Origin: an uncultured Coriobacteriia bacterium
Lineage (GTDB): Bacteria; Actinomycetota; Coriobacteriia; Coriobacteriales; QAMH01
NCBI GenBank assembly: GCA_959608885.1
Contig: CAUHSG010000003.1
Span: 2,276 to 66,275 of the forward strand
DNA: 64,000 nt
Reading direction: 5' to 3'
Position numbers and translations under genes: made by a program
The notes under the pieces: model-generated
Database searches by the model: none
What the model saw: only the letters and a program-made list of their open reading frames with translations
Told to the model about the DNA's origin: nothing
Shown: positions 7,853 through 61,823 of the stretch, piece by piece
How the letters are laid out: each line of letters starts with the position of its first letter
Numbering within the stretch: the first letter of the stretch is position 1

Positions 7853-7866
7853 GCCCAAATGACATA

Positions 7867-30551: not shown

Positions 30552-30977
30552 CTAGTCGCTCACGTCGAGCAGCTTTACCCAGTAGACGATGTCCTTGCCT
30601 GCGAGGGGATGGTTGAAGTCGATGGTAGCGACCTGGTTTTCCACGCTCACCACCTTTGCCGGAATGGGCTCGATGTTACGCGGCGAAGTCCACCCGATGT
30701 ATTCGCCAACGGGTAGGTTTTCGCCGTTGGGCACCTTGTAGGTGGGGAAGTGCTGTACGGCGCTCTCGTCGTATTCGCCGTAGGCGTCTGCCGCCGCGAG
30801 TTCGACCGTGCGCTCCTCGCCCGGCTCCATTTCGAGTAGGACGTCTTCCAAGGCTTTCATGACCTGACGCCTGCCGAGGATTATCTCGTGCGGAGTGCCC
30901 TCGCAGTCGTCAAAGACCTCGCCGTCGGGAAAGCTGCCGCGATACAGGAAGCGCGCGGTTTGTCCCTTTTGCGCCAT
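30552..30977 (-). CDS. FKBP-type peptidyl-prolyl cis-trans isomerase, SlyD-like
   Basis: From MAQKGQTARFLYRGSFPDGEVFDD...ILGRRQVMKALEDVLLEMEPGEE...DFNHPLAGKDIVYWVKLLDV. The start is moved to 30977 because the ORF-track start lies inside a repeat. Confidence 0.85.
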   Translation of the reverse strand: MAQKGQTARFLYRGSFPDGEVFDDCEGTPHEIILGRRQVMKALEDVLLEMEPGEERTVELAAADAYGEYDESAVQHFPTYKVPNGENLPVGEYIGWTSPRNIEPIPAKVVSVENQVATIDFNHPLAGKDIVYWVKLLDVSD

Positions 30978-36435: not shown

Positions 36436-36642
36436 ATGTGTTTCAGACCCGCAAGCTTTGAGTCCGAAGGTGACAACCCCTATTTCGTTCCCGGAGATCC
36501 CGAGGATGCCGCAGCCCCCGGTGCCCCCGGAGCCCCCGGCGCACCCGGCGCACCCGGAGCTCCCGCGGCACCTGGTGCCCCCACCGCTCCCGGAGCTCCC
36601 GCGGCACCGGGCGCACCCGCCGCGCCGGGCCAGCCGTCTTAA
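36436..36642 (+). CDS. small protein (68 aa): N-terminus MCFRPAS followed by 14 consecutive P-x-A triplets
   Basis: An AGGAG RBS lies 8 nt upstream of ATG at 36436. The protein reads MCFRPASFESEGDNPYFVPGDPEDAAAPGAPGAPGAPGAPGAPAAPGAPTAPGAPAAPGAPAAPGQPS. The N-terminus and synteny are shared with the 61160-61387 protein. It is hidden in the ORF track inside a spurious 226-aa ORF. Confidence 0.55.
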   Translation: MCFRPASFESEGDNPYFVPGDPEDAAAPGAPGAPGAPGAPGAPAAPGAPTAPGAPAAPGAPAAPGQPS

Positions 36643-36755
36643 TCGAGATGTCTCGTCGGGCACGTTCCGGTGCAGGCGCCCCCCCCGGTCGGTGAAAGCC
36701 GACTTGGGACACGAAGTGACAAGACAGGTTGAGAGAGAAGAGGAAAGGAAAGAGC

Positions 36756-39095
36756 ATGAAGATTTTCAAAGGTCAGGGCACTGCCGATCTTGGCAAGCCG
36801 TGGCGCTTCGAAGAAGACGGCCTCACCGTCACCCGCGGTTGCGCATGGTCTCCTCCGGGATGTCATCCGACCGGATGCGGTATCAAGACCTACGTGAACT
36901 CCAACGGCGAGCTCGTGCGCGTCGAGGGCGATGAGAACCATCCCATCACAAACGGCCGCCTCTGCGTCCGTTGCCTGACCATCCGCGATTACGTCTACAA
37001 TCCCGATCGCGTCCTGTATCCCATGAAGCGCGCTCGCGAGGACCGCGGCAAGAACAAGTGGGAGCGTATCACTTGGGACGAGGCGTATGACACCATCGCC
37101 GAGAAGGTAAAGTACTTCAAGGACAAGTATGGTGCCGAATCCATCCTGGTCATGGGCGGCACCGGTCGCGAGGGTGGCCCCATGCTTCCCGCATACGCGC
37201 ACGCATGCCTGGGTACCCCCAACGCGTGCTATACGCAGTCCGGCTATTCCTGCTACATTCCGCGTGTCGCGGGCACGACCTACGTCATGGGCGCGACCTA
37301 TCCCGAGATGGACTATGCCGGCGGTCTGCCCGGCCGCTATGACGACCCGATGTTCAAGCTTCCCGAGCTCATCGTGTTCTGGGGCAAGGAGCCCCTTCCG
37401 TCCAACGGCGACGGCCTGTTCGGTCACGCCGCCATCGACATGATGCGCCGCGGCTCCAAGCTCATGAGCATCGACCCGCGCGTCAACTGGGTCTCCACGC
37501 GTGCCGACTGGCACCTGCGCCTGCGTCCCGGCACCGACGCGGCCCTGGGCATGGCGATGCTCAACGTTATCATCGAGGAGGACCTCTACGACCACGACTT
37601 CGTCGACAAGTGGTGCTACGGCTTCGAGCAGCTCGCCGAGCGCGTCAAGGAGATGCCCGCCGAGAAGGCCGCCGAGATCTGCGACCTCGACGCGAACCAG
37701 ATTCGCGAAGCCGCTCGCGTCTACGCCGCGGCCAAGCCCGCGCAGATCGCGTGGGGCCTGGCCATCGACCAGAAGTCCAATGGCGTCCAGGCCGGCCACT
37801 GCATCATGGCCCTCGAGGCCATCACCGGCAACATCGACGTTCCCGGCGGCCAGCTCATCGGTGATGTCAACGACGGACTCGAGCTCGGCTTTGGCTGGAA
37901 CAACCTCGGCCCCGAGCTTCAGAGCAAGATCCTGGGCATCAAGGAGTACCCGGCCTATGTCGGCCTCGTTCTCAACGCGCAGTGCGACATGGTCCTCGAC
38001 GCGCTCGAGGCGGGCGACGACGCCAAGTACTATCCGTTCAAGATGGGCGTCTTCGAGGACACCAACTTCCTGGCCGGCACCTGTGCCGCCCAGCCCAAGC
38101 GCTGGCACGATGCCATGGTCAAGAACCTCGAGTGGTGCTTTGGCATCGACGTGTGGATGACCCCGACGATTCAGGCCACCTGCGAGATCTTCCTGCCGCT
38201 GTCGTCGACCGTGGAGCATGATACCGTCGTGTACACGCACTACGGCGCATCGCCGATCATGGCCGGTGCCGTCAACAAGTCCATCACGGTGGGTGACTGC
38301 AAGGGCGATTGCGAGATCTTCTACGAGCTCGGCCTGCGCTGCATGCCCATCAACTTCGAGAAGTACAAGGACTACTACGACTTCCTGGCCGATTACCGCC
38401 TTGCCTATAAGAAGTCCTTCGAGGAGCTGCGCGAGGAGGTCGTCCACCAGAAGACCGAGATGTGCGGCTACTACAAGTACGAGTCCGGTCGCCTGCGTCC
38501 CGACGGCATGCCCGGCTTCAACACCCCGACCGGCCGCGTCGAGCTCTACTCGACGATGTTCCGCCAGTTCGGCGAGGATCCTTTGCCGTACTACGAGGAG
38601 CCGCAGCTCTCGCCGGTGTCCACGCCCGAGAAGATGGAGGAGTATCCCTTTGTCCTCACGACGGGTGCCCGTACCTATTGCTACTTCCACTCGGAGGGCA
38701 AGCAGATCCCGTACCTGCGCGAGATGAATCCCGACCCCCTGATCGAGATCAACCCCGAAGACGCGCTCAAGCATGGCATCACCGATGGCCAGTGGGTCGA
38801 GGTTGCAAGCCCGTTTGGCAAATGCGTCTTGAAGGCCAAGGTTTCCCAGATCGTCAAGCCGGGTGTCGTGCATGCGCAGCATGGTTTCTGGTTCCCCGAG
38901 AAGGATCCCGAGGAGCCCAGCCTGTACGAGGTATGGCGTTCCAACATCAACGAGCTCATCCCTCACTTCATGGTCGGAAAGCTCGGATTCGGCGCGCCGT
39001 TCAAGTGCCTGATCTGCAGCGTGAAACCGGTGTCGGAGAACTATGACACCGACATGATGGAGGTTTGGGACCACTTCGGAAAGTTGGTGATCTAG
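36756..39095 (+). CDS. molybdopterin (bis-MGD) oxidoreductase catalytic subunit, paralog A; cytoplasmic; acetylene-hydratase-like clade (inferred)
   Basis: 779 aa from MKIFKGQ with no twin-arginine signal. The N-terminal Cys motif is CAWSPPGCHPTGCG...CVRC. MopB-type regions include YPMKRAREDRGKNKWERITWDEAY, GGTGREGG and LYDHDFVDKWCYGFEQLAERV. The C-terminal beta-barrel region contains VLTTGARTYCYFHSE...INPEDA...DGQWV. Confidence 0.92.
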   Translation: MKIFKGQGTADLGKPWRFEEDGLTVTRGCAWSPPGCHPTGCGIKTYVNSNGELVRVEGDENHPITNGRLCVRCLTIRDYVYNPDRVLYPMKRAREDRGKNKWERITWDEAYDTIAEKVKYFKDKYGAESILVMGGTGREGGPMLPAYAHACLGTPNACYTQSGYSCYIPRVAGTTYVMGATYPEMDYAGGLPGRYDDPMFKLPELIVFWGKEPLPSNGDGLFGHAAIDMMRRGSKLMSIDPRVNWVSTRADWHLRLRPGTDAALGMAMLNVIIEEDLYDHDFVDKWCYGFEQLAERVKEMPAEKAAEICDLDANQIREAARVYAAAKPAQIAWGLAIDQKSNGVQAGHCIMALEAITGNIDVPGGQLIGDVNDGLELGFGWNNLGPELQSKILGIKEYPAYVGLVLNAQCDMVLDALEAGDDAKYYPFKMGVFEDTNFLAGTCAAQPKRWHDAMVKNLEWCFGIDVWMTPTIQATCEIFLPLSSTVEHDTVVYTHYGASPIMAGAVNKSITVGDCKGDCEIFYELGLRCMPINFEKYKDYYDFLADYRLAYKKSFEELREEVVHQKTEMCGYYKYESGRLRPDGMPGFNTPTGRVELYSTMFRQFGEDPLPYYEEPQLSPVSTPEKMEEYPFVLTTGARTYCYFHSEGKQIPYLREMNPDPLIEINPEDALKHGITDGQWVEVASPFGKCVLKAKVSQIVKPGVVHAQHGFWFPEKDPEEPSLYEVWRSNINELIPHFMVGKLGFGAPFKCLICSVKPVSENYDTDMMEVWDHFGKLVI

Positions 39096-39443
39096 ATGAC
39101 AGCCTACGGACTGCTTATCGATTACGAGTTTTGCACGGGCTGCCAGTCTTGCGAGGTTGCGTGCAAGGAGATTCATAACATCCCCGTGGGGCAGTGGGGC
39201 ATTCGCGTTCTCGACGATGGCCCCTGGGAGTGCTCGGACGGCAAGTTCAACTGGAACAAGATTCCGACCCCGACCCGCCTATGCGACCTGTGCGTGGAGC
39301 GTACGGAAAAGGGCCAGCAGCCCTTCTGCGTGCATCATTGCCTGGCCGGCGTCATGCAATGGGGCACGGTCGAGGACCTTGCAAAGGAGCTCGAGGAGAA
39401 GCCGAACCAGGTGCTCTTCGTACCCAAGCCCTACCAGTATTAG
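39096..39443 (+). CDS. small 8-Cys ferredoxin-like subunit (115 aa) partnered with paralog A
   Basis: The ATG abuts the stop of paralog A. First motif is CTGCQSCEVAC (Cx2Cx2Cx3C). The second set is CDLC-x11-CVHHC. Confidence 0.9.
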   Translation: MTAYGLLIDYEFCTGCQSCEVACKEIHNIPVGQWGIRVLDDGPWECSDGKFNWNKIPTPTRLCDLCVERTEKGQQPFCVHHCLAGVMQWGTVEDLAKELEEKPNQVLFVPKPYQY

Positions 39444-39537
39444 CAAACCCGTCGCGTGACGAGAGGTGCATGCGGGAGAGCAAGCGACCCCGCGTGCATC
39501 CCACGCGACAAGAGGCGAGCGAGAACAGGACGCCTTC

Positions 39538-40245
39538 ATGGACCAGCGGGAACTCGAAGTTCAAACCGAGGACAGATGCGACAACTATGCCATGCTGTCG
39601 CGCCTGTTTCGGAGCGAGGTCGACAAGGAACTCCTTGCCGACCTGATCGAAAGCCCCGTCGCCGAGTCGACGGGTAACGAGCTCTTTGACTCGGGCTACG
39701 CGCGCGTACGCGCATATCTGGACGCGATTGACGATCTCGATCGATTCAAGTCGGTGCTTGCCATTGACTACTGCCTGGCATTTCTGGGCTATGGCGTCGA
39801 CCCCGACAAGGCGGACGAGGCGGGTAGCAATGCCGCCTACCCATACGAGTCGATCTACCGTACCGGAAGCAAATCGCTGGGCGGAGACCACTGCGCCGAA
39901 GTGTCCGATGCGTTCCGCGCATGCATGTTCGCGCCCACGAGAGATCGCCTCATCGCGGACGACCACATCGCGTGCGAGCTCGAGTTCATGCAGTACCTGG
40001 CCAATAGCGAGCTTACCGCCCTGCGCGCGGGCGAGCTGGCGGCCGCCGCCGGGACGCGGAAAAAGGAACTCGAGTTTCTGGAGGGCCATCTGCTTGCGTG
40101 GATCGGCTCCTTCGGGGAAGTGGTCGCGAAGTTCGCCGAGACGGATTTCTACACCGGCCTGCTCGCCATGACGCAGGGTTGGCTCGAGCTCGATGCCGAG
40201 TATCTGCGCGAGGTCTGTACGACGGAGAGGGAGGGGGCGCGATGA
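39538..40245 (+). CDS. TorD/DmsD-family molybdoenzyme maturation chaperone
   Basis: NYAMLSRLFRSEVDKELLADL and EDHIACELEFMQYLA are TorD-like motifs. The start is taken at ATG 39538. Confidence 0.8.
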   Translation: MDQRELEVQTEDRCDNYAMLSRLFRSEVDKELLADLIESPVAESTGNELFDSGYARVRAYLDAIDDLDRFKSVLAIDYCLAFLGYGVDPDKADEAGSNAAYPYESIYRTGSKSLGGDHCAEVSDAFRACMFAPTRDRLIADDHIACELEFMQYLANSELTALRAGELAAAAGTRKKELEFLEGHLLAWIGSFGEVVAKFAETDFYTGLLAMTQGWLELDAEYLREVCTTEREGAR

Positions 40246-40562
40246 CGCAGGATCACGGGCCAGATGGCCGCAGCTGGAACAAGAGCGAGGTCGAGTATGA
40301 CCTTGGCGTTGCTGGCCCCGGTCAGAGCATCGTCATCACCATCACCCGTTCTGTCGGGGTCAAGATCATGGACCACGAGAATTACGAGCTCTACAAGGCA
40401 GATGAGGACTGCAGGGCCTTTTCGGGCCAGCTGACCTCGTCACCGTATCGATTCAAGGTGCCCCGCGAAGCGCGCTGGCACGTGATCATCAATCCGCACA
40501 CGTACTCGGGAACCGCCGAGTTCAACGTGAAGCTCATCGATGACGCGGTGCTTGGCGCCTGA
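40242..40562 (+). CDS. DUF1883-like small protein (106 aa)
   Basis: ATGA start/stop overlap with the TorD-like gene. The region EVEYDLGVAGPGQSIVITITRSVGVKIMDHENYELYKADEDCRAFSG...PYRFKVPREARWHVIIN resembles the DUF1883 pattern (recalled, not searched). Confidence 0.62.
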   Translation: MTQDHGPDGRSWNKSEVEYDLGVAGPGQSIVITITRSVGVKIMDHENYELYKADEDCRAFSGQLTSSPYRFKVPREARWHVIINPHTYSGTAEFNVKLIDDAVLGA

Positions 40563-40645
40563 TCGCGCGGATACGCACGTTTGGTTATGACGGTCCGGTA
40601 CAGACAAGAGCCGGGCCGTGAAAGAAGGAGAAGGAGAGTGAAGCA

Positions 40646-43012
40646 ATGGAGTTAAGTGATTACAAGGCAGCTCCAGTCGTGAAGCTGGATTCCCTTGCCG
40701 ACGTCAACGACATCGGCAAGCCCTGGCGCTACGAGGATGGCGATTACATCGTCACCCGCACCTGCCCGTGGTCGCCTCCGGGATGCCATCCCGTCGGCTG
40801 CGGTCTCAAGCTCTACGTCAACGAGGACGGCAGGCTCGAGCACGTCGAGGGCGACGAGAACCATCCCGTCACCCAGGGTCGTCTGTGCCCGAGGTGCATC
40901 ACGCTGAAGGACTACGTCTACAGCCCCGCCCGCATCCTCACCCCGATGAAGCGCGATCGCTCCCAGCGTGGCAACGCGGATGCCTGGGAAGAGTGCTCCT
41001 GGGACGAGGCCTTTGCCATCATCAAGGAGAACTACGAGCGCATCGTCGACCAGTACGGCCCCGAGTCCATCATCGGCATGTCCGGCACCGGCCGCGAGGG
41101 TGGCACCATGTCGCTGTATCCTACGATGGTGTTCGGCACGCCCAACTACTGCTACATGCAGTCTGGCTATGCCTGCTACACTCCGCGTCTCGCGGCTGCC
41201 GCCTACATCACGGGTTCCACCTATTCCGAGTGGGATTACGCGGGTGCGCTGCCCGACCGCTGGGATGACGAGCGCTACACGCTGACCGAGGTTCTGGTCA
41301 TGTGGGGCAAGGCTCCGCTCGAGTCCAACCCGGACGGCTTCTTCGGCCATGCGGTCGTCGACGCCATGCGCCGCGGCACGCGTCTCATCCAGATCGACCC
41401 GCGTGTCAACTGGCTGTCCGCCCGCGCCGACATCTTCATCCAGCTGCGCGCCGGCACGGATACGGCCCTGGCCATGGCGATGCTCGACATCATCATCAAG
41501 GAGGACCTCTACGATCACGAGTTTGTCGAGTACTGGTGCTACGGCTTCGAGCAGCTCGCCGAGCGCGTCGCCACGATGCCCCCCGAAAAGGCCGCCGAGA
41601 TCTGCCAGGTTCCCGTCGAGAAGATCTACGCCGCCGCACGCATGTACGCGAAGGCCAAGCCGGCCGCCATCATGTGGGGTCTTGCCGTCGACCAGAAGAC
41701 CGACGGCATGCAGAACAGCCAGTGCATCATCGCGCTGCAGGCCATCACCGGCAACTTCGACCGTCCGGGTGGCCAGCTCGTTCCTGGTGCCGATGCCGGT
41801 CACAACGAGCTCGGCTTTGGCTACAAGGAATGCATCCCCGACGAGCTCTTCCAGAAGATGATTGGCATGGACCAGTACCCCGCGTACTGCAACATGATCC
41901 TCAACTCGCAGGTTGACCTCATGCTCGAGGCCCTCGAGACCGACAAGCCCTATCCCATCCGCATGGGCTTTTACATGGCCTCCAACCCGCTGTCGAACAC
42001 CTCGATGGAGCCCAAGCGCTGGCATGACGCCCTGTGCAAGTCCCTCGAGTTCTGCATCGGCATCGACCTGTTCATGAACGCCTCCATCCAGGCGACCTGC
42101 GACATCTTCCTGCCCATCGCTACCATCGCCGAGCGCGAGGGCACCGTCTTCACGCACTATGCGCCCTGCACGGTTACCGCCGGCTTCATGCACAAGGCTG
42201 TCGATTGTGGTGGCCTGCCCTCCGACATGGAGCTCGCCTATCGCCTGGGCAAGTACCTGCATCCGGAACGCTTCTCCAAGTGGGCCAACGAGCACGAGCT
42301 CGTCGAGGCCTTCCGTCTGGGTGTCGAGAACCACGGCGAGACCTTCGACGAGGTTTCCAAGTGCGTCGTCGCCCAGGTGCCCATCGAGTACTACAAGTAC
42401 GAGAAGGGCCTGCTGCGTCAGGACGGCCAGGTTGGCTTTGCCACCCCGACCGGTCGCGTCGAGCTTTGGTCGACCGCGTACAACCAGTTTGGCGAGGATC
42501 CGCTGCCGTACTACATCGAGCCGGAGTTCAGCCCGGTCAGCAAGCCGGAGCTCATGGACGAGTATCCCCTCATCCTCACGACCGGCGCGCGCACCACGGC
42601 GTTCTTCCACTCCGAGAACCGTCAGATTCCCTACACGCGCGAGCTCAATCCCGATCCGCTGCTCGAAATCAATCCCAAGACGGCGCAGGAGAAAGGCATC
42701 GCCGATGGTCAGTGGGTGCGTGTCTGGAACATGTTCGGCGAGGCCGTCATGAAGGCCAAGGTCTCCGAGGCTGTGGACGAGAAGACCGTTCATGGTCAGC
42801 ACGGCTGGTGGTTCCCCGAAGAGGATGGCAGCGAACCGAACCTCTACGGCACCTTCCGCTCGCAGATTAATAACCTGTGCCCCAACGGCCGCATGGGCAA
42901 GCTGGGATTCGGCGCTCCCAACAAGTGCCTGATCTGCAACGTCGAGCCCGTGAGCGAGTCGTATGACACCGACATGAATCTCATCTGGGAAAAATTCGGA
43001 AAGCTGGTGTAA
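40646..43012 (+). CDS. molybdopterin (bis-MGD) oxidoreductase catalytic subunit, paralog B
   Basis: 788 aa with a GGAGAAGGAG RBS and no TAT signal. Motifs are CPWSPPGCHPVGCG...CPRC and LYDHEFVEYWCYGFEQLAERV. It is colinear with paralogs A, C and D. Confidence 0.92.
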   Translation: MELSDYKAAPVVKLDSLADVNDIGKPWRYEDGDYIVTRTCPWSPPGCHPVGCGLKLYVNEDGRLEHVEGDENHPVTQGRLCPRCITLKDYVYSPARILTPMKRDRSQRGNADAWEECSWDEAFAIIKENYERIVDQYGPESIIGMSGTGREGGTMSLYPTMVFGTPNYCYMQSGYACYTPRLAAAAYITGSTYSEWDYAGALPDRWDDERYTLTEVLVMWGKAPLESNPDGFFGHAVVDAMRRGTRLIQIDPRVNWLSARADIFIQLRAGTDTALAMAMLDIIIKEDLYDHEFVEYWCYGFEQLAERVATMPPEKAAEICQVPVEKIYAAARMYAKAKPAAIMWGLAVDQKTDGMQNSQCIIALQAITGNFDRPGGQLVPGADAGHNELGFGYKECIPDELFQKMIGMDQYPAYCNMILNSQVDLMLEALETDKPYPIRMGFYMASNPLSNTSMEPKRWHDALCKSLEFCIGIDLFMNASIQATCDIFLPIATIAEREGTVFTHYAPCTVTAGFMHKAVDCGGLPSDMELAYRLGKYLHPERFSKWANEHELVEAFRLGVENHGETFDEVSKCVVAQVPIEYYKYEKGLLRQDGQVGFATPTGRVELWSTAYNQFGEDPLPYYIEPEFSPVSKPELMDEYPLILTTGARTTAFFHSENRQIPYTRELNPDPLLEINPKTAQEKGIADGQWVRVWNMFGEAVMKAKVSEAVDEKTVHGQHGWWFPEEDGSEPNLYGTFRSQINNLCPNGRMGKLGFGAPNKCLICNVEPVSESYDTDMNLIWEKFGKLV

Positions 43013-43014
43013 AT

Positions 43015-43506
43015 ATGGCAACCTACGGACTTCTTATCGATTACGAGTACTGCACGAACTGCGGTTCGTGCCAGGTCTCCTGCAAGGAAGAGCATGGTTA
43101 CCCGGTAGGCAAGACGGGCATCGCCGTCCATGCCGATGGCCCGTGGTACATCGATGACGATAACATCAACTTCAACTACTTCCCCCTGCCGACGGATCTG
43201 TGCGACCTGTGTAAGGATCGCACCGCGCGTGGCCGCGAGCCCATCTGCGTGCATCACTGCCTCGCCAACATCCTCTACTACGGCACGGTCGAGGAGCTGT
43301 CGAAGAAGCTTGAGGAAAAGCCCAAGCAGATGCTCATCGTTCCGCAGTTCATGCCGCGCGAGGCCAAGGGCGAGTTCGTCCATCAGGAGAACGCGACCGA
43401 CGCGCACAAGGCAGCGGCCATGGAGGTCACCGGCACTGGTGCCTCGACGTTTGGCGCGCACCGTGCGGACGCCAAGGTCGGCGAGTACGAGGAGGACGCC
43501 GTCTAG
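43015..43506 (+). CDS. small 8-Cys ferredoxin-like subunit with a ~50-aa C-terminal extension (163 aa), partner of paralog B
   Basis: CTNCGSCQVSC plus CDLC-x11-CVHHC. It starts 2 nt after the stop of paralog B. Confidence 0.9.
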   Translation: MATYGLLIDYEYCTNCGSCQVSCKEEHGYPVGKTGIAVHADGPWYIDDDNINFNYFPLPTDLCDLCKDRTARGREPICVHHCLANILYYGTVEELSKKLEEKPKQMLIVPQFMPREAKGEFVHQENATDAHKAAAMEVTGTGASTFGAHRADAKVGEYEEDAV

Positions 43507-43639
43507 GACGGATTCCGATTCGTGACATTTTCACAGTCTCCACGGGGGCGTCTCGCATGGTCGGGTCGCCCCCTTGGGGGGAGATGGAAGGCAAGAGCCG
43601 CCGGGGCGGTTTTGTCTCATTGGCTTGGAAGGGGGATGC

Positions 43640-44083
43640 ATGGAAGAGACCGAATCAGAAGAGAACCGCACGGGTATGTTGGCCTACATCCGCTATGAGG
43701 GGGGCATACTCGGCGAACGCCACGTGGACAAGCACCTGGACGAGCCGTTGCCCGTCCGCATCGGGGCGGGCCGCGTGGTCAAGGGCATTGACGATGCCCT
43801 GCACAAGATGCAGGTTGGCGAAAGCGCCACGCTCATCATTCCCCCCGAAGAGGGGTACGGCGATGCCGACCCCAAGCAGGTCAAGTGGTATCCGCGTTCG
43901 ATCATTCCGCATGGTTACGAAATCAAGAAGGACACGATGATCATGTGGGAAAGCGCTGATGGCCTCGCCAAGCGCCCCGCCATGGTGGTGGACGCGACCG
44001 AAGACACGGTGAAGATTGACATGAATCATCCCTATGCGGGCAAGACGCTCGAATACTGGGTCGAGCTCGTCGACCTCCAGTAG
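43640..44083 (+). CDS. FKBP-type peptidyl-prolyl isomerase, SlyD-like, embedded in the molybdoenzyme array
   Basis: From MEETESE: VRIGAGRVVKGIDDALHKMQVGESATLIIPPEEGYG...DMNHPYAGKTLEYWVELVDLQ. Confidence 0.85.
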   Translation: MEETESEENRTGMLAYIRYEGGILGERHVDKHLDEPLPVRIGAGRVVKGIDDALHKMQVGESATLIIPPEEGYGDADPKQVKWYPRSIIPHGYEIKKDTMIMWESADGLAKRPAMVVDATEDTVKIDMNHPYAGKTLEYWVELVDLQ

Positions 44084-44095
44084 GGAGCGGATGCA

Positions 44096-44374
44096 ATGTG
44101 CTATCCGTGCACGAACTGCGGGCGCTGCGGAAAGTTCGATCCCAGCAGCCCTCTGTATACCCCTCCGCCGAGCATTCCGTGCCTGAAGTGCGGCGGCATC
44201 GTCGACGCCACGACGGGCATATGCGAGCAGTGCGGAGACCAGGCGTTCACGCCCACGGGCGGCATGATGGCCAGCGCAAATAGCCTGCGTCCTGATGCCG
44301 TCGACGGCGATGACGCCGAGCATCCCCTGGGGGTGCGCGAGGAGAATCCGATCGAAGGAGGGATTGCCTCATGA
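44096..44374 (+). CDS. 8-Cys mini-protein (92 aa): CxxCxxCxxC plus a zinc-ribbon/rubredoxin-like CxxCG-x9-CxxCG
   Basis: MCYPCTNCGRCGKF...PCLKCGGIVDATTGICEQCGD. ATGA start/stop overlap with paralog C. Confidence 0.6.
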   Translation: MCYPCTNCGRCGKFDPSSPLYTPPPSIPCLKCGGIVDATTGICEQCGDQAFTPTGGMMASANSLRPDAVDGDDAEHPLGVREENPIEGGIAS

Positions 44375-46704
44375 AGCTGTTCAAAGGCCAGGGAACTGCC
44401 GATCTTGGCAAGCCGTGGCGCTTCGAGGAAGACAGCCTCACCGTCACCCGCGGTTGCGCGTGGTCTCCTCCGGGATGCCACCCCGTTGGCTGCGGCATCA
44501 AGACCTACGTGAACTCCAACGGCGAGCTGGTCAGAATCGAAGGAGACGAGAACCATCCCGTCACGGGAGGCCGTCTGTGCGTTCGTTGCCTGACCATGCG
44601 CGATTACGTCTACAATCCCGATCGCGTGCTCTACCCGATGAAGCGCGCCCGCGAGGACCGCAGCAAGAACAAGTGGGAGCGCATCACCTGGGACGAGGCC
44701 TTCGACACCATTGCCGAGAAGGTCGCGTATTACAAGGAAAACTACGGGGCGGAGTCCATCCTCATGCAAGGCGGCACGGGCCGCGAGGGTGGCCCCATGC
44801 TTCCCGCGTACGCACAGGCCGCATTGGGAACGCCTAATGCTTCCCAACCGCTCAGCGGCTACTCGTGCTATATTCCGCGCGTCGCGGGCACGACCTACGT
44901 CACAGGCGTCGTCTATCCCGAGATGGACTACGCTGGCGGCCTGCCCGGCCGCTATGACGATCCCGCCTTCAAGCTTCCCGAGCTCATCGTATTCTGGGGC
45001 AAGGACCCACTGCCCACGAACGGTGACGGGCTATTCGGTCACGCCGCCATCGACATGATGCGCCGCGGCTCCAAGCTGATGAGCATCGACCCGCGCGTCA
45101 ACTGGGTGGCGACCCGCGCCGACTGGCATTTGCGCCTGCGCCCCGGTACGGATACCGCCTTGGGCATGGCGATGCTCAACGTCATCATCGAGGAGGATCT
45201 CTACGACCACGACTTCGTCGAGCGCTGGTGCTACGGCTTCGAGCAGCTCGCCGAGCGTGTCGAGGAGATGCCAGCCGAGAAGGCCGCCGAGATCACCGGT
45301 GTGGATGCCGGCCTCATCACCGAGGCCGCCCGCGTCTACGCTGCGGCCAAGCCCGCGCAGATCGCGTGGGGCCTGGCCATCGACATGAAGTCGAACGGCA
45401 TGCAAGCCGGGCACTGCATCCTCGCGCTCGAGGCCATCACAGGCAACCTCGACGTTCCCGGCGGCCAGCTCGTAGGTGACGTCAACGACGGACTCGAGCT
45501 CGGCTTTGGCTGGAAGGAGCTCGGCCCCGAGCTGCAGGAGAAGATACTCGGCCTCAAGCGCTACCCGGCCATGGTCAGCTTCGTGCTCAACGCACATTGC
45601 GACATGGTTCTCGACGCGCTCGAGACCGGTGAGCCCTATGCCTTCAAGATGGCGGGTTTCGAGGATTGCAACGGTCTGGCCGGCACGGATTGTGCCCAAC
45701 CGCAGCGCTGGCACGATGCGTACCAGAACCTCGAGTGGTGCTTCGGCATTGACGTGTGGCTCACGCCCACCATCCAGGCGACATGCGAGCTGTTCCTGCC
45801 GCTTTCTTCGACGGTCGAGTATGACAGCGTGGTCTATAGCCATTACGGCGCCTCGCCCATCACCATGGGCGCCGTCAACAAGTCCATCACGGTGGGCGAA
45901 GGCAAGGGCGATGCCGAGATCATGTACGAGATCGGCCGTCGGTGCATGCCCATCAATTTCGGACGCTTTGCGAATTTCTACGAGTTTCTCGAGTATTACC
46001 GCCTCAACGGCAAAACCACCTTCGAGGAGCTGCGCGAGGAGGTCGTCCACCAGAAGACCGAGACGCTATCCTATCGCAAATACGAGACGGGCAAGCTGCG
46101 TCCCGACGGCATGCCCGGCTTCAACACCCCGACCGGCCGCGTCGAGCTCTATTCGACGATGTTCCGTCAGTTCGGGGTCGATCCGTTGCCGTACTACGAG
46201 GAGCCTCAGCTCTCGCCGGTATCCACGTCCGAGAAGATGGAGGAGTACCCGTTCGTGCTCACCACGGGCGCCCGTACCTACTGCTACTTCCACTCGGAGG
46301 GCAAGCAGATCCCGTACCTGCGAGAGATCAATCCGGACCCGCTCATCGAGATCAATCCGCAGGATGCCCTCGAGCTCGGAATCGCAGACGGCCAATGGGT
46401 GCGCGTAAGCAACCCCTTTGGTTCATGCGTGCTCAAGGCTAAGGTCACCCAGACGGTATATCCGGGGCTGGTCATGGCCCAGCACGGCTTCTGGTTCCCC
46501 GAGGAGGACGGCGAGGAGCCGCATCTCTACGACGTATGGCGTTCCAACATCAACCTGCTCATGCCCCATTTCTACGTGGGCGAGCTCGGCTTCGGCGCGC
46601 CGTACAAGTGCCTGATCTGCAAGGTCGAGCCCATCGAGGAGAGCCACGACACCGACATGCAGGCGATTTGGAATCGCTACAGCCAGCTCGCCACACCGGA
46701 GTAG
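44371..46704 (+). CDS. molybdopterin (bis-MGD) oxidoreductase catalytic subunit, paralog C (closest to A; no ferredoxin gene follows)
   Basis: 777 aa. The N-terminus MKLFKGQGTADLGKPWRFEEDSLTVTRGCAWSPPGCHPVGCGIKTYVNSNGELVRIEGDENHP is nearly identical to paralog A. Confidence 0.92.
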   Translation: MKLFKGQGTADLGKPWRFEEDSLTVTRGCAWSPPGCHPVGCGIKTYVNSNGELVRIEGDENHPVTGGRLCVRCLTMRDYVYNPDRVLYPMKRAREDRSKNKWERITWDEAFDTIAEKVAYYKENYGAESILMQGGTGREGGPMLPAYAQAALGTPNASQPLSGYSCYIPRVAGTTYVTGVVYPEMDYAGGLPGRYDDPAFKLPELIVFWGKDPLPTNGDGLFGHAAIDMMRRGSKLMSIDPRVNWVATRADWHLRLRPGTDTALGMAMLNVIIEEDLYDHDFVERWCYGFEQLAERVEEMPAEKAAEITGVDAGLITEAARVYAAAKPAQIAWGLAIDMKSNGMQAGHCILALEAITGNLDVPGGQLVGDVNDGLELGFGWKELGPELQEKILGLKRYPAMVSFVLNAHCDMVLDALETGEPYAFKMAGFEDCNGLAGTDCAQPQRWHDAYQNLEWCFGIDVWLTPTIQATCELFLPLSSTVEYDSVVYSHYGASPITMGAVNKSITVGEGKGDAEIMYEIGRRCMPINFGRFANFYEFLEYYRLNGKTTFEELREEVVHQKTETLSYRKYETGKLRPDGMPGFNTPTGRVELYSTMFRQFGVDPLPYYEEPQLSPVSTSEKMEEYPFVLTTGARTYCYFHSEGKQIPYLREINPDPLIEINPQDALELGIADGQWVRVSNPFGSCVLKAKVTQTVYPGLVMAQHGFWFPEEDGEEPHLYDVWRSNINLLMPHFYVGELGFGAPYKCLICKVEPIEESHDTDMQAIWNRYSQLATPE

Positions 46705-46815
46705 GGGAGGGGAGGATTCTGGGAGATTGCCATTTTGGCCGGGGCGGTCACGCATCGCGAGACATCCTCGTCCAGGCAGAGAGACAAGCACGATAAGAGA
46801 GGAAAGGAAGGAAAC

Positions 46816-49107
46816 GTGACTACAACAGCCAAGATCGATAGCGGCATCGAGAACTTCAAGAACGACTTGGGCAAGCCGTGGCGTTACGAGGAAGACGGAT
46901 ATACCGTCACCCGTGCGTGCGCCTGGTCGGCTCCGGGTTGCCATCCCGTCGGATGCGGCGTCAAGCTCTACGTGAACAAGGACGGCATTCTCGAGAAGGT
47001 CGAGGGTGACGAGAACCAGCCCATCACGCAGGGTCGCCTCTGCATGCGCTGCCTGACCCTCACCGACTTCACCTATCATCCGGACCGCGTCATCTATCCC
47101 ATGAAGCGCGCCAAGGAGGATCGCGGCAAGGACAAGTGGGAGCGCATCACCTGGGACGAGGCCTATGACATCATCGAGGAGAACATCCAGGGTCTCAAGG
47201 AGAAGTACGGTCCCGAGTCCATCGTCGTCTTCGGTGGTACCGGTCGCGAGGGTGGTCCCATGTGCGGTCCCTATGGCGCCGCAATGATCGGCACGCCCAA
47301 CGCCTGCTACACCCAGTCCGGCTATGCCTGCTACATCCCGCGTGTCGCCGCTGGTACGTACGTCGCGGGCGTGACCTATCCCGAGATGGACTACGCCGGC
47401 GGCCTGCCCGGCCGCTACGACGACCCGATGTACAAGATTCCCGAGGTCATGATCACCTGGGGCAAGGAGCCGCTTCCCTCCAACGGCGATGGCTTCTTCG
47501 GGCATTCCGTCATCGACGTCATGAAGCGCGGCAGCAAGCTCATCTCGATTGACCCGCGTTCCAACTGGCTGTCCACGCGTGCGGTTTACCATCTGCAGCT
47601 TCGCCCCGGTACGGATACCGCCCTGGGCATGGCGATGCTCAACATCATCATCTCCGAGGACCTCTACGATCACGAGTTCGTCGACAAGTACTGCTACGGG
47701 TTCGAGCAGCTTGCCGAGCGCGTGAAGACCATGACCCCCGAAATGGCCGCAGAGATCTGCGACCTGGATGTCGAGGACATCTACGGCGCGACGCGCATGT
47801 ATGCGAATGCCGAAAACGCCGCAATTTTGTGGGGCCTCGCCACCGACCAGAAGGCAAACGGCACCCAATCCGGTCACACCATCATCGCGCTCGAGGCCAT
47901 CACCGGCAATCTCGACGTTCCCGGCGGCCAGTTGCTCGGTGACGTGAGCGATTCACTCGGAGACCTCGGCTTTGGCTGGAAGGAGCTCGGCCCCGAGCTG
48001 CAGAACAAGATCATCGGCCTGTACGAGTATCCCGCCTATGTCGGTATGGTGCTCAACTCTCATGCCGACCTCACGCTCGAGGCGATGGAGACGGGCGAGC
48101 CGTACGAGATTCACGGTGGCTTCATCGCATCGACCAACCTGCTTGCCGGAACCTGCGCCGCCCAACCCAAGCGCTGGCATGACGCCATGGTCAAGCTCGA
48201 CTTCGTCTTCGCGGCCGACTGCTGGATTACCCCGACCGTCCAGTGCTGCGCCGACGTCATCCTGCCGCTCGCAACGTACGCCGAGCGCCAGTCTATGGTC
48301 GGCACGCATTACGGAGCGTCGCCCAACATGCTCGGTGCCGTCGTCGATGCCGTCAAGGTGGGCGAGACCAAGGGCGACCTCGAGATTCAATACGAGCTCG
48401 GTTGCCGCCTCAATCCTGGCACCTACGAGCGCTTCAGGGATTTCGAGGACTTCCGTTCCGAGTTCCGCCTGGGCAATCTTGGCATGAGCTACGAGGAGCT
48501 GCGCGAGAAGGTCGTCGTCCAGCGCAACGTCAGCTACAAGAAGTACGAGACCGGCAAGCTGCGTCCCGACGGCAAGCCCGGCTTCAACACGCCGACCGGC
48601 CGCGTCGAGCTCTACTCGACGATGTACAAGCAGTTTGGCGAGGACCCGCTGCCGTACTATGAGGAGCCGCAGCGCTCGCCGGTCTCCACGCCCGAGCTCA
48701 TGGAGGAGTACCCGTTCGTGCTCACGACCGGTGCGCGCACCTATGCGTATTTCCACTCCGAGGGCAAGCAGATTCCCCTGCTGCGCGAGGTTAATCCCGA
48801 CCCCCTGCTCGAAATCAATCCCAAGGACGCGGAGGAGCTCGGCATCGTCGACGGCGAGTGGGTCAACGTCGAGAACGAGTTTGGAAAGTGCCAGCTCAAG
48901 GCGAAACTCACCCCGATCGTGAAGCGTGGCGTCGTGCACGCCCAGCATGGGTTCTGGTTCCCCGAGGAAGATGGCGAGGAGCCGCATCTGTTCGGCGTCT
49001 GGCGTTGCAACATCAACGAGCTCATTCCGCACAAGTTCGTTGGCAAGCTCGGCTTCGGCGCGCCATTCAAATGCGTCATCTGCAAGGTCGAGAAGCTGGG
49101 TAAATAG
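46816..49107 (+). CDS. molybdopterin (bis-MGD) oxidoreductase catalytic subunit, paralog D
   Basis: GTG at 46816 is preceded by GGAAAGGAAGGA. The protein reads VTTTAKIDSGIENFKNDLGKPWRYEEDGYTVTRACAWSAPGCHPVGCG...CMRC. It is colinear with A to C. Confidence 0.9.
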   Translation: MTTTAKIDSGIENFKNDLGKPWRYEEDGYTVTRACAWSAPGCHPVGCGVKLYVNKDGILEKVEGDENQPITQGRLCMRCLTLTDFTYHPDRVIYPMKRAKEDRGKDKWERITWDEAYDIIEENIQGLKEKYGPESIVVFGGTGREGGPMCGPYGAAMIGTPNACYTQSGYACYIPRVAAGTYVAGVTYPEMDYAGGLPGRYDDPMYKIPEVMITWGKEPLPSNGDGFFGHSVIDVMKRGSKLISIDPRSNWLSTRAVYHLQLRPGTDTALGMAMLNIIISEDLYDHEFVDKYCYGFEQLAERVKTMTPEMAAEICDLDVEDIYGATRMYANAENAAILWGLATDQKANGTQSGHTIIALEAITGNLDVPGGQLLGDVSDSLGDLGFGWKELGPELQNKIIGLYEYPAYVGMVLNSHADLTLEAMETGEPYEIHGGFIASTNLLAGTCAAQPKRWHDAMVKLDFVFAADCWITPTVQCCADVILPLATYAERQSMVGTHYGASPNMLGAVVDAVKVGETKGDLEIQYELGCRLNPGTYERFRDFEDFRSEFRLGNLGMSYEELREKVVVQRNVSYKKYETGKLRPDGKPGFNTPTGRVELYSTMYKQFGEDPLPYYEEPQRSPVSTPELMEEYPFVLTTGARTYAYFHSEGKQIPLLREVNPDPLLEINPKDAEELGIVDGEWVNVENEFGKCQLKAKLTPIVKRGVVHAQHGFWFPEEDGEEPHLFGVWRCNINELIPHKFVGKLGFGAPFKCVICKVEKLGK

Positions 49108-49118
49108 GAGGAGACGTC

Positions 49119-49466
49119 ATGAGAAACGGACTGTTAATCGATTACGAGTTTTGCACGGGCTGCCAGTCCTGCGAGGTCGCCTGCCAGAAGGAGCACGGTT
49201 TCGAGGCCGGCACCTGGGGTATTCGCGTGCTTGACGAAGGTCCTTGGGAGGTCGACGAGAAGACCATGAACTGGAACAAGATTCCCACGCCCACGACCTT
49301 GTGCGACCTGTGCGCTGACCGTACGGCGAAGGGCAAGCTTCCCACGTGCGTGCATCACTGCCTGGCTGCCGTCATGAAGTACGGCCCCATCGACGAGCTC
49401 GTCAAGGAGATGGACAAGAAACCGAACCAGGTCATGTTCGTACCAGGACCCTATATCTGCAAGTGA
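49119..49466 (+). CDS. small 8-Cys ferredoxin-like subunit (115 aa), partner of paralog D
   Basis: AGGAGGA RBS. CTGCQSCEVAC plus CDLC-x11-CVHHC. It closely resembles the paralog-A ferredoxin. Confidence 0.9.
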   Translation: MRNGLLIDYEFCTGCQSCEVACQKEHGFEAGTWGIRVLDEGPWEVDEKTMNWNKIPTPTTLCDLCADRTAKGKLPTCVHHCLAAVMKYGPIDELVKEMDKKPNQVMFVPGPYICK

Positions 49467-49567: not shown

Positions 49568-51517
49568 ATGGCATCTTTCAATGATTACGAGTACGTCTTC
49601 ACGCCACTTAAGGTGGGGCGTCAGGTCCTGAAGAATCGCATCATCTTCTCGCCGATGGTTTCCGATTACACCACCGCCAACGGCGAGCCCACCCAGGGAT
49701 ACATCGACTTCGTCGAGGAGCAGGCAAAGACCGGGGCGGCACTCATCACGCTGGGTGCGACGCCGGTCAACTGGGATACCGCGCCTGACTATCCCGCCGA
49801 GCTCAACGTTACCGAGGACACGCGCATCAACGGTCTCGTGTTGCTATCCGAGGTCGCCCATCGCCATGGTGCCAAGATTTCGGTCGAGCTCGTCCATGCC
49901 GGTCGTGGCGTGCATCCCGAGCTCATCCAGAGCGAGTACGGTCTTGCGCCCACGCCGCTGCCCATTCCCGGGCAGTACCCCTATCTCAAGGAGATGGAGT
50001 TCCGCGACATGGAGAATATCATCGCGGACTACGTTGACTGCGCGGTGCGGTTGAAGAAGGCCCAGTTCGACGGCGTGAACATCCACGCTGCCCACGGTAA
50101 CCTGATTGCCGCTTTCCTGTCTCCGCTCACCAATCATCGCAACGACAACTTCGGCGGCAGCTTCGAGAACCGCTGCCGGTTCCCGCTCATGCTGCTCAAG
50201 GCCGTGCGCGAAGCCGTCGGCGACGATTTCATGCTCGACATGCGCATCAGCGGTGACGAGATGGTCGATGGTGGCATGAGGGTCGAGGAGGTCATCGAGT
50301 TTCTCAAGCTTGCACAGGAGTATCTCGACATGGTCAACATCTCGGCCGGGCTCATCGTCGATTGGCGCGCGCAGTTCTTCACCATGCCGCCGTACTATCA
50401 GCCCCATTGTCTCAACCGCGAGCTTTCCCGCAAGGTCAAGGAATGCAAGGACATCACCATTCCCGTCTCCGTCGTCGGATGCATCACCAACACCGACGAG
50501 GCCGAGGACATCATCGCAAGCGGGGCTGCCGATGCATGCTACATCGCGCGTGCGCTGCTGGCCGACACCGAGATTCTCAAGAAGTCGTATCGCGGCGAAC
50601 CCGAGACGGTGCGTCCGTGCCTGCGCTGCCATTCGTGTGCGGCAGGTGGGGGCAATCACATGTCGTGCGCGGTCAACCCCCAACTCGGACGCGGGTATCG
50701 CTACTGGGAAATCCTGCCGGCGTCCAAGAGCAAGAAGGTCGTCATCATTGGCGGCGGCCCGGCCGGCATGATGGCCGCACAGACCGCCATCAAACGCGGT
50801 CACGAGGTCGTCTTGTTCGAGAAGTCCGCATCGTTGGGCGGGGCGCTCAATGACATCAACAAGCTGCCGTTCAAGGGCGACTTGCTGAGGTATACCGATT
50901 GGGATGTCAAGCAGACCATGGAATGCGGCGCCGACGTGCGTCTCAACACCGAGGCGACCCCGGACCTCGTCATGGCCGAGAATCCCGACGCCCTCATCGT
51001 CGCGCTTGGCTCCAAGCCCTTCGACCCGCCGGTGCCCGGGCTTGACCGTGACAACGTCTATGGCGTGCGCGACGTCGACTCGGGTCGCAAGAAGGTCAGC
51101 GGCAAAGTCGTCGTCTGCGGCGGCGGGGCGAGTGGTTGCGAATCGGCCCTGGCCCTTGCCATGGAGGGCTGCGAGGTCACGCTCGTCGATCACGTCGAGG
51201 CCGACAGATTTGCCGGCGGCATGATCCACATCACGCGCGGCATGCTCATGGCGCTGCTCGAGGAATACGGCGTGCGCATCCTGGACGACCGCAATGTCGA
51301 GGCAATCGACGAAGACGGCGTGCACATCCAGGACAGGAACTGGCGCCGCGAGGTCATCCCGGCCGACTACGTCGTCAATGCCATGGGCATCATCCCCGTC
51401 GCGCCCGACGAGTTCCGTGAGCTCGTTCCCGAGACTTATGTCGTGGGCGACTGTTCCGACATCGGGACCATCAAGAAGGCGAATCACAGCGGATTCGACG
51501 CTGCCATGGAGATATAG
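49568..51517 (+). CDS. OYE-type FMN domain + [4Fe-4S] + FAD/NAD(P) domain oxidoreductase (2-enoate reductase / 2,4-dienoyl-CoA reductase family)
   Basis: From MASFNDYEY (AAGGAGGGA RBS): NRIIFSPM, HAAHGNLIAAFLSP..N.R.D.FGGS, Cys motif RPCLRCHSCAAGGGNHMSCAVNP, and VVIIGGGPAGMMAAQTA. Confidence 0.9.
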   Translation: MASFNDYEYVFTPLKVGRQVLKNRIIFSPMVSDYTTANGEPTQGYIDFVEEQAKTGAALITLGATPVNWDTAPDYPAELNVTEDTRINGLVLLSEVAHRHGAKISVELVHAGRGVHPELIQSEYGLAPTPLPIPGQYPYLKEMEFRDMENIIADYVDCAVRLKKAQFDGVNIHAAHGNLIAAFLSPLTNHRNDNFGGSFENRCRFPLMLLKAVREAVGDDFMLDMRISGDEMVDGGMRVEEVIEFLKLAQEYLDMVNISAGLIVDWRAQFFTMPPYYQPHCLNRELSRKVKECKDITIPVSVVGCITNTDEAEDIIASGAADACYIARALLADTEILKKSYRGEPETVRPCLRCHSCAAGGGNHMSCAVNPQLGRGYRYWEILPASKSKKVVIIGGGPAGMMAAQTAIKRGHEVVLFEKSASLGGALNDINKLPFKGDLLRYTDWDVKQTMECGADVRLNTEATPDLVMAENPDALIVALGSKPFDPPVPGLDRDNVYGVRDVDSGRKKVSGKVVVCGGGASGCESALALAMEGCEVTLVDHVEADRFAGGMIHITRGMLMALLEEYGVRILDDRNVEAIDEDGVHIQDRNWRREVIPADYVVNAMGIIPVAPDEFRELVPETYVVGDCSDIGTIKKANHSGFDAAMEI

Positions 51518-58468: not shown

Positions 58469-58470
58469 GG

Positions 58471-61817: not shown

Positions 61818-61823
61818 CTCTCG

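Follow-up and report, generated by a model that had tools for sequence, protein, structure and literature searches.

Predicted soluble Gordonibacter-type catechol dehydroxylases encoded as a four-copy array in an uncultured Coriobacteriia genome

The DNA examined here, referred to throughout as the window, is a stretch of 64,000 nucleotides from an uncultured Coriobacteriia bacterium (assembly GCA_959608885.1, contig CAUHSG010000003.1, positions 2,276 to 66,275, forward strand), and positions given below count from its first letter. Between 36.4 and 49.5 kb it carries four uninterrupted plus-strand open reading frames, arranged head to tail, that encode molybdopterin catalytic subunits, namely A (36756-39095, 779 aa), B (40646-43012, 788 aa), C (44371-46704, 777 aa) and D (46816-49107, 763 aa, with a GTG start). 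In Pfam, each of the four proteins (763-788 aa) contains the three MopB domains Molybdop_Fe4S4, Molybdopterin and Molydop_binding. Independent gene calling on metagenome contigs that encode these proteins arrives at the same boundaries. The first-pass annotation, which had been made from the letters alone, described four colinear catalytic genes on one strand, and this layout was confirmed, with pairwise identities ranging from 55 to 82% (A/C 82%, A/D 69%, C/D 67%, B/D 58%, A/B 56% and B/C 55%). On the evidence presented below, the region is very probably a polyphenol-metabolism cluster of a human-gut bacterium, which probably belongs to the Eggerthellaceae, and encodes four soluble Gordonibacter-type molybdenum catechol dehydroxylases with a bis-molybdopterin guanine dinucleotide (bis-MGD) cofactor. 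A to D are uncharacterised members of an already described enzyme class; they do not represent a new kind of system.

Three of the catalytic genes are directly followed on the same strand by a gene for a small iron-sulfur protein, hereafter a mini-ferredoxin, and C is a paralogue of A that lacks its own ferredoxin gene. FdA (39096-39443, 115 aa, two Cys groups of four, Fer4_11 and Fer4_2 matches) begins 0 nt after A, FdB (43015-43506, 163 aa, with a C-terminal extension) 2 nt after B, and FdD (49119-49466, 115 aa, 68% identical to FdA, with eight conserved Cys) 11 nt after D, so that the sizes and spacings proposed at first pass (115-163 aa, 0-11 nt) are reproduced exactly. The eight Cys are invariant among the four mini-ferredoxin copies of the window. 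The N-terminus of these proteins aligns with Cys group I (CxxCxxCxxxC) of DmsB-, FdnH- and TtrB-type beta subunits, and their CxxC-x11-CxxxC set aligns with the last Cys group (IV) of DmsB, FdnH and formate dehydrogenase beta subunits. The latter set had been described as atypical, a label that does not survive this alignment: DmsB-type subunits carry Cx2C-x11-Cx3C as their canonical group IV motif. The mini-ferredoxin thus reads as a shortened DmsB-type beta subunit that keeps only Cys groups I and IV; with the middle part and its groups II and III missing, it would bind two clusters at most. A structure prediction of FdA from a four-sequence alignment reached only a low mean predicted local distance difference test score (49.7).

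With regard to cellular location, the N-termini of A to D and the in-frame sequence upstream of them were read again, and no RR motif, hydrophobic h-region or transmembrane-like segment was found, in agreement with the earlier view that a twin-arginine signal is absent. More broadly, the proteins of the array, including the interleaved accessory products, contain neither a twin-arginine motif nor a hydrophobic segment. An NrfD/DmsC-type membrane anchor is likewise missing among the called genes of the cluster, as had been claimed, and in-frame TGA codons are absent from A to D. As proposed at first pass, A to D are predicted to be cytoplasmic bis-MGD enzymes. Automatic annotation would place the four proteins among cytoplasmic formate dehydrogenases (FdhF-like) or thiosulfate/polysulfide- or DMSO-type reductases, on the strength of best NCBIfam matches to Fdh-alpha, dmsA_ynfE and PhsA (E = 1e-61 to 1e-79) and of a JGI source in which a near-identical protein is called an "anaerobic selenocysteine-containing dehydrogenase". 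These NCBIfam scores, however, lie far under the curated cut-offs (257 vs 666 bits for Fdh-alpha and 239 vs 778 bits for dmsA_ynfE), and formate dehydrogenase structures match at least 35 orders of magnitude worse than acetylene hydratase does. Considering also that the four proteins have no in-frame TGA, no twin-arginine translocation (Tat) signal and no membrane anchor, an assignment to these families is extremely improbable.

The best match of A in the PDB is the acetylene hydratase of Pelobacter acetylenicus (2e7z; E = 7e-83, about 680 residues aligned), and the next match reaches only 1e-46. A likeness to this enzyme had been noted at first pass from a conserved block, LYDH[DE]FV..WCYGFEQLAERV, and the comparison was borne out by the aligned block of 2e7z, in which the counterpart reads LYDKEFVENWCVGFEELKERV. 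The block had been attributed to all four enzymes; this holds for A, B and C, whereas D has KYCYGF in place of WCYGF, with W replaced by Y. The N-terminal pattern C-x6-C-x4-C-x28-C-x2-C, on the other hand, is indeed shared by A, B, C and D. Residue conservation was counted in a set of 137 distinct homologues taken from fetched loci (numbered L001 to L081). In all 137, residues C36, H37, C41, C70, C73 and C166 are invariant (numbering of A; residues 29-73 and 166 are encoded at about 36840-37255), while the first Cys of the pattern, C29, occurs in only 64 of the 137 and is therefore unlikely to be a cluster ligand.

When A is aligned to acetylene hydratase, C36 and C41 fall on its second and third cluster Cys, C70 falls on the fourth, and H37 falls on Asp13, the catalytic Asp of that enzyme, located directly after the second cluster Cys. 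In addition, C166 lies opposite chain residue 138 of 2e7z, the metal ligand that the literature numbers Cys141. The cluster motif of acetylene hydratase, C-x2-C-x3-C-x29-C with its Asp, is thus altered in A to D, where the first position is not Cys, a His follows the second Cys and an extra Cys lies beyond the fourth. This arrangement suggests a ligand swap in which C73 would have replaced the first canonical cluster ligand, and H37 may take part in protonating the leaving hydroxyl.

Such resemblance raises the question of whether A to D might be non-redox hydratases of the acetylene hydratase kind, acting on alkynes or other unsaturated compounds. Acetylene hydratase is their best solved-structure match, and both share the metal-ligand Cys as well as the LYD..FV..WC.GFE.L.ERV block. 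Against this, an invariant His occupies the Asp13 position and the first cluster Cys is absent, and three of the four enzymes have a dedicated electron-transfer subunit. Acetylene hydratase is a stand-alone monomer and is not known to have an electron-transfer partner. Furthermore, orthologues of the enzymes lie within published catechol dehydroxylase clusters, and identity to the Dodh fragment discussed below (44-46%) appears higher than that to acetylene hydratase. Hydration chemistry is therefore considered highly improbable. That acetylene hydratase is the closest solved structure agrees with what has been published for catechol dehydroxylases (PMC7028382).

The preferred assignment, to the Gordonibacter-type catechol dehydroxylases, builds on several recent studies. 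Dodh and similar Gordonibacter enzymes were described as lacking a Tat signal, being smaller than those of Eggerthella, lying beside a small 4Fe-4S protein and major facilitator superfamily (MFS) transporters, and probably being soluble (eLife 2020, PMC7028382), and the name "Gordonibacter-type catechol dehydroxylases" was later defined by the presence of two cytoplasmic subunits (JACS 2025, PMC11887054). A cluster for ellagic acid metabolism combines two or three such enzymes with 4Fe-4S proteins, MFS transporters and a LuxR regulator (PNAS 2025, PMC12771579), and homologous eam clusters have been reported in uncultivated gut Coriobacteriia (PMC12771579). MFS and LuxR or LysR neighbours and substrate-induced expression are among the published features of the type, whose characterised members are Dodh, Cldh/(-)-Eddh, Gp Hcdh, Gs Vadh, (+)-Eldh1/2 and Eadh1/2/3 (PMC7028382, PMC11585353, PMC11887054, PMC12771579). 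Adjacent paralogues with complementary site selectivity also have precedents in the characterised clusters.

The features of A to D agree with this type: they have its size, its MopB domains, no Tat signal, an iron-sulfur partner without an anchor (C being the exception) and MFS and LuxR neighbours. None of the features of the Eggerthella type (Tat signal, more than 1000 aa, four-cluster beta subunit, anchor) is found in them. Their placement in the family was obtained by pairwise comparison with a fragment of Dodh and by listing in a published catalogue. The N-terminal 400 aa of Dodh are 44-46% identical to A to D over 361-404 residues (45.7% over 361 for A), which is the same range as that separating Dodh from the lignan enzymes (-)-Eddh and (+)-Eldh1/2 at full length (44-48%, Supplementary Table 5). 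Orthologues of A (G. pamelaeae C1877_07290 and Gordonibacter sp. 28C C1878_02695, 86-87% identical) and of B (C1877_07280 and C1878_02685 in the same two organisms, 86% identical) appear in Supplementary Table 4 of PMC11887054, which contains 419 sequences of two similarity clusters, Eggerthella-type and Gordonibacter-type, that together hold all characterised catechol dehydroxylases. The link to catechol dehydroxylases of gut Coriobacteriia drawn at first pass is correct. The accompanying statement that the subunit and accessory composition does not correspond to a described system has to be withdrawn, as the soluble two-subunit type had already been published (PMC7028382, PMC11887054, PMC12771579). 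Because sequence, architecture and context agree, membership in the family is well supported. Pyrogallol-phloroglucinol hydroxytransferase (AthL/BthL) was also considered as a candidate and rejected, since A to D have a Molybdop_Fe4S4 domain instead of the AhtL-like one and PDB 4v4c is matched at only E = 3e-14. Both hallmarks of that enzyme, the AhtL-like first domain of the large subunit and a CarboxypepD_reg-like C-terminal domain in the beta subunit, are seen in a separate minus-strand gene pair (57647-61080).

Do A to D correspond to enzymes with an assigned substrate? Published primers for quantitative PCR of cldh, GPA_25810, GPA_25800 and C1878_02750 have no match at the loci where G. 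pamelaeae and Gordonibacter sp. 28C encode their orthologues of A and B. The strain 28C orthologues have the accessions WP_114600179 (A) and WP_114600177 (B), which differ from those of Eadh1 (WP_114602618) and Eadh2 (WP_114601864). The 3' ends of the ferredoxin genes of Eadh1/2/3 and both ends of the Eah decarboxylase gene, taken from published cloning primers, likewise have no match in the window or in any fetched locus, the Eah ends at neither the DNA nor the peptide level, and the genes called in and around the cluster include none of decarboxylase type. With no Eah gene in the window or the fetched loci and with these differing accessions, identity with the eam cluster was rejected. Gp Hcdh, at 770 aa, shares only about 34% identity with Dodh; the orthologues of A and B have 776 and 788 aa, and A to D are about 45% identical to the Dodh fragment. 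On primers, accessions, lengths and the distance to Dodh, identity with the lignan cluster, Dodh, Vadh and Hcdh was rejected as well.

For D, the closest comparison comes from Ellagibacter, where an orthologue in a metagenome-assembled genome (MAG; L008) is 86% identical and a partial orthologue of the same protein cluster is found on an E. isourolithinifaciens contig (L081). Both adjoin the A-B cluster, and neither has a decarboxylase gene near it. The ferredoxins of the D type end in PYICK or PYTCKA (PYTCKA in L008) and not, like the partner of Eadh3, in QIPAS, and no Eah gene is nearby; on this indirect evidence, D is probably not Eadh3. A search for the locus tags and accessions of the orthologues found no mention of them in the papers of the searched library. 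Judged from these sequence comparisons, no evidence was found that A to D, or their Gordonibacter and Ellagibacter orthologues, are any of the characterised enzymes.

Several further genes are interleaved with the catalytic genes. A TorD-like chaperone, a DUF1883 protein, an FKBP and two mini-proteins had been named at first pass, and all were recovered. The TorD/NarJ-family chaperone (39538-40245, plus strand, 235 aa) matches PF02613 (E = 1.9e-18) and, below the family cut-off, NCBIfam TorD (E = 1.5e-20), and its end is overlapped by 4 nt by the start of the DUF1883 gene (40242-40562, plus strand, 106 aa; PF08980, E = 7e-16). After FdB come a SlyD/FkpB-like FKBP peptidyl-prolyl isomerase (43640-44083, plus strand, 147 aa; PF00254, E = 4e-14, with NCBIfam PRK15095 and PRK10737 below cut-off) and a Cys-rich zinc-ribbon mini-protein (44096-44374, plus strand, 92 aa; CLKCG...CEQCG, weak DZR match), whose last 4 nt coincide with the beginning of C.

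Across the 81 related loci, an FKBP homologue lies within 10 kb of a dehydroxylase gene in 69, typically directly after a B-type alpha/beta pair and followed by the zinc-ribbon gene. Zinc-ribbon homologues are present within the same distance in 44 loci, mostly just after the FKBP gene, and a DUF1883 homologue is present in 14, only beside orthologous A-B clusters; a protein database search with the DUF1883 protein retrieved close orthologues only. For Gordonibacter-type enzymes, the FKBP and zinc-ribbon genes receive no mention in the catechol dehydroxylase papers examined, and neither this association nor the invariant C/H/C...C-x2-C signature, both of which are family-wide, is mentioned in the literature examined. 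Embedded TorD-like and other accessory genes are known from Eggerthella-type clusters, in which a TorD-like accessory protein is experimentally required for Dadh. By analogy, the chaperone-like genes of the array would probably assist cofactor insertion and folding. For a chaperone of the TorD/NarJ family acting on an enzyme that has no Tat signal, NarJ, which serves the non-exported NarG, provides a precedent.

The other mini-protein, which begins MCFRP and continues into (APG)n repeats, is encoded immediately upstream of A (36436-36642, plus strand, 68 aa) behind a good sequence resembling a ribosome-binding site, AAAGGAGAG; the gene calls of the metagenome contigs omit it. A 9/36-nt tandem repeat at 36509-36623 encodes its (APG)n tail, and a closely related strain (L076) is 36 nt shorter in this repeat, in frame, as deduced from shifted coordinates and a protein match of reduced length. 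Orthologues upstream of A elsewhere (L003, L004, L005 and L006, at about 9.6-9.95 kb) combine a zinc ribbon, PYF(I/V)PG and APG repeats. The 68-aa copy has lost the ribbon and kept PYFVPG and (APG)n; the orthologues elsewhere have both. A paralogue is encoded at 61160-61387 on the minus strand (75 aa; zinc ribbon CPKCG..CPNCG and a VPGAPG tail). The MCFRP... family sits just upstream of dehydroxylase genes, and the 92-aa zinc-ribbon protein begins with MCYPC, which resembles the start of these mini-proteins.

Immediately upstream of the array, the gene order on the plus strand is MFS, LuxR, MFS. The first transporter (31517-32728, 403 aa, Pfam MFS_1, about 9 hydrophobic segments) is conserved upstream of A orthologues in many genomes. 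It is followed by a membrane-embedded LuxR-type regulator (33028-34557, 509 aa) with about 7 hydrophobic stretches at residues 28-386 and a GerE helix-turn-helix at residues 430-483, the position of which is conserved in synteny, and by the second transporter (34826-36064, 412 aa, Pfam MFS_1, about 10 hydrophobic segments). LuxR-type regulators have been found to control catechol dehydroxylase genes (PMC12771579).

Downstream of FdD, three genes continue on the same strand with gaps of 60-100 nt. The first (OYE1; 49568-51517, 649 aa) encodes a flavoenzyme of the OYE/2,4-dienoyl-CoA-reductase (DCR) family with Pfam Oxidored_FMN and Pyr_redox_2 domains, for which the best PDB matches are 2-naphthoyl-CoA reductase 6qkg (E = 1e-82) and the DCR 1ps9; a homologue search returned only generic "2,4-dienoyl-CoA reductase-like" names, with no hint of a substrate. 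It is followed by a short-chain dehydrogenase/reductase (SDR; 51608-52426, 272 aa, adh_short), conserved after OYE1, and by a second OYE/DCR-family flavoenzyme (52490-54445, 651 aa), which is 47% identical to OYE1 and conserved in L015, L016, L024 and L026. OYE1 follows the D-FdD pair in L015, L016, L022 and L024, and the module D-Fd-flavoenzyme-SDR-flavoenzyme recurs in several related genomes. Their presence suggests reduction of C=C and carbonyl groups, and the flavoenzymes and the SDR probably work on the skeleton that the dehydroxylases act on.

Beyond these genes, the end of the window (57647-64000, minus strand) forms a second polyphenol-type module. It comprises a pyrogallol-hydroxytransferase-like alpha subunit with an AhtL-like first domain (58471-61080, 869 aa), the corresponding beta subunit (57647-58468, 273 aa, Fer4_11 and CarboxypepD_reg), and a fifth Gordonibacter-type dehydroxylase gene, which runs from 61824 past the end of the window, together with its mini-ferredoxin (61494-61817, 107 aa) and a mini-protein, all on the minus strand. 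On the other side of the array, a gene for MoeA, the molybdopterin molybdotransferase, lies about 9 kb upstream (26213-27481, plus strand). A second FKBP-type gene (30552-30977) is found on the opposite strand just upstream of the first MFS gene; it has a counterpart at the same position in most A-B cluster loci, and its product is about 30% identical to the in-cluster FKBP. The segment at about 2000-8000 of the window has a G+C content of 46%, compared with about 60% elsewhere, and may be a foreign insert.

In terms of distribution, Gordonibacter pamelaeae, Gordonibacter sp. 28C and Raoultibacter massiliensis share the core MFS-LuxR-MFS-A-Fd-B-Fd-FKBP in syntenic order, and most of it is kept in an Adlercreutzia sp., Ellagibacter and several animal-gut MAGs (A orthologues 84-94% and B orthologues 71-91% identical). 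The TorD-like and DUF1883 genes are present in only part of the syntenic clusters. C and D are restricted to the lineage of the window and its ruminant relatives, with D additionally present in Ellagibacter, and the position of C varies by lineage, being after DUF1883 in ruminant MAGs and before D in the human lineage. The proteins are abundant in gut metagenomes: one near-identical A sequence occurs on 310 contigs, and the protein clusters that hold B, C and D have 786, 297 and 920 members, respectively. The best match in a species-level genome collection is the uncultured human-gut Coriobacteriaceae bacterium UMGS650 (L018), whose cluster genes are 98-100% identical to those of the window. 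The trigger-factor gene of UMGS650 is only 88% identical to that of the window (29145-30449, as against the cluster segment 31517-44374), whereas the L076 contig is 98.8% identical there. The window therefore derives from a near relative of UMGS650 and not from UMGS650 itself. Among these relatives the cluster has diverged less than the gene flanking it, for which recombination or transfer might be responsible.

By analogy with characterised members of the family, a working model can be outlined that covers import, sensing, electron flow, hydroxyl removal and complementary selectivity. The MFS transporters would bring a catechol-containing plant metabolite into the cell, and the LuxR protein would sense it and induce the genes. 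A cytoplasmic donor would supply electrons, which would travel by way of the two [4Fe-4S] clusters in the small subunit and the cluster of the catalytic subunit to molybdenum, where one catechol hydroxyl would be reductively removed as water. Most likely, each of the four paralogues would have its own regio-, stereo- or substrate selectivity towards related compounds, as has been shown for (+)-Eldh1/2 and Eadh1-3, and C would probably borrow FdA or FdD. The initial view that no substrate can be assigned here is upheld.

Several points weigh against this interpretation. Catechol dehydroxylation by A to D or by their orthologues is a prediction by analogy, and the electron donor of the soluble members is a putative cytoplasmic one, again proposed by analogy. 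The roles suggested for the FKBP, DUF1883 and zinc-ribbon proteins are read from gene neighbourhood only. A partner ferredoxin gene for C was found neither in the window nor in any related genome examined; its orthologues in L002, L003, L015, L016, L021-L024 and L026 are never followed by one. Moreover, a promoter and terminator scan of the region found no more sites than in shuffled sequence, terminator-like sites included, and so marks no operon limits. Finally, some members of the clade could catalyse reactions other than catechol dehydroxylation.

The last of these points leads to the only serious alternative, in which A to D belong to the Gordonibacter-type clade and act on another target, such as a different aromatic substituent, an N- or S-oxide or a non-catecholic phenol, so that the family name would be misleading. 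Only about ten of the hundreds of family members have been characterised (PMC12771579, PMC11887054), A to D are at most about 46% identical to the Dodh fragment, and the search for characterised enzymes found none more than about 57% identical to A; the neighbouring genes for ene-reductase-like enzymes and an SDR also hint at a multi-step reductive pathway. Nevertheless, each member characterised so far needs a catechol and removes one hydroxyl from it, and the combination of MFS transporters, a membrane LuxR protein and alpha/beta pairs follows the same genomic grammar as that of proven dehydroxylases, in a gut Coriobacteriia genome that also holds a fifth copy and a pyrogallol-hydroxytransferase-like pair. 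A target of this other kind is accordingly regarded as unlikely, and catechol dehydroxylation is retained as the expected reaction.

A more far-reaching interpretation, which would join an undescribed maturation or assembly set, a rearranged set of [4Fe-4S] ligands with a His proton donor, and a complete polyphenol pathway, can be put forward only tentatively. Its first component would be an assembly set consisting of the SlyD-like FKBP and the MC(F/Y)xP... zinc-ribbon mini-proteins, to which the A-B cluster would add a Tat-independent TorD/NarJ-type chaperone coupled to DUF1883. In the second, the proximal cluster would be held by the ligands C-x3/4-C...C-x2-C, the first canonical Cys having been swapped for a new one, and the His at the Asp13 position may serve as the proton donor. 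According to the third, the dehydroxylases, the two enoate-reductase-like enzymes and the SDR would form a full pathway for a common dietary polyphenol in a widespread gut bacterium.

It is the catechol dehydroxylases that decide which metabolites of polyphenols and catecholamines the host receives, among them enterolignans, urolithins, hydrocaffeate and dopamine products, and of the hundreds of enzymes in the family most have no assigned substrate. The cluster itself would not surprise a specialist, given that a strain of Gordonibacter or Ellagibacter typically encodes over 30 family members that are uncharacterised (PMC12771579); it adds four such members, one of them without its own ferredoxin. 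The A-B core is also common to cultivable, genetically tractable Gordonibacter (C1877_07290/07280), which offers a practical route to substrates, and the FKBP and zinc-ribbon neighbours, together with the invariant His/Cys signature, provide leads on heterologous production and on the mechanism of dehydroxylation.

Placed among known systems, the array can be compared at several levels. With acetylene hydratase, A to D share fold-level similarity over about 680 residues, the metal-ligand Cys, cluster Cys 2-4 and a cytoplasmic location; they differ in lacking the first cluster Cys, in having the extra invariant C73 and a His for Asp13, in their dedicated ferredoxin subunits, and in an expected chemistry that is redox rather than hydration. 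The mini-ferredoxins share the first and last Cys groups with the four-cluster beta subunits of the DmsB/NrfC/FdnH type but lack the middle part with groups II and III. The Eggerthella-type enzymes (Dadh, Cadh and El Hcdh) have in common with the array the reaction class, the superfamily and an organisation in multi-paralogue clusters with shared, required accessory genes including a TorD-like chaperone, whereas they exceed 1000 aa, are Tat-exported, possess a four-cluster beta subunit and a membrane anchor, and are only about 16-23% identical to Gordonibacter-type enzymes. The eam cluster of Gordonibacter and Ellagibacter resembles the array in combining several Gordonibacter-type dehydroxylases and their 4Fe-4S partners with MFS and LuxR genes in a single inducible cluster. 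The closest correspondence is with the Gordonibacter type as a whole, in which a catalytic subunit of about 770-790 aa without Tat signal or anchor is likewise followed directly by a small 4Fe-4S partner, paralogues adjoin one another in one cluster, and acetylene hydratase is the nearest relative outside the family. Relative to that type, the array is distinguished by four copies in a row with C lacking a ferredoxin gene, by the TorD-like, DUF1883, SlyD-like FKBP and zinc-ribbon genes inside it, and by the two enoate-reductase-like genes and the SDR gene attached to it.

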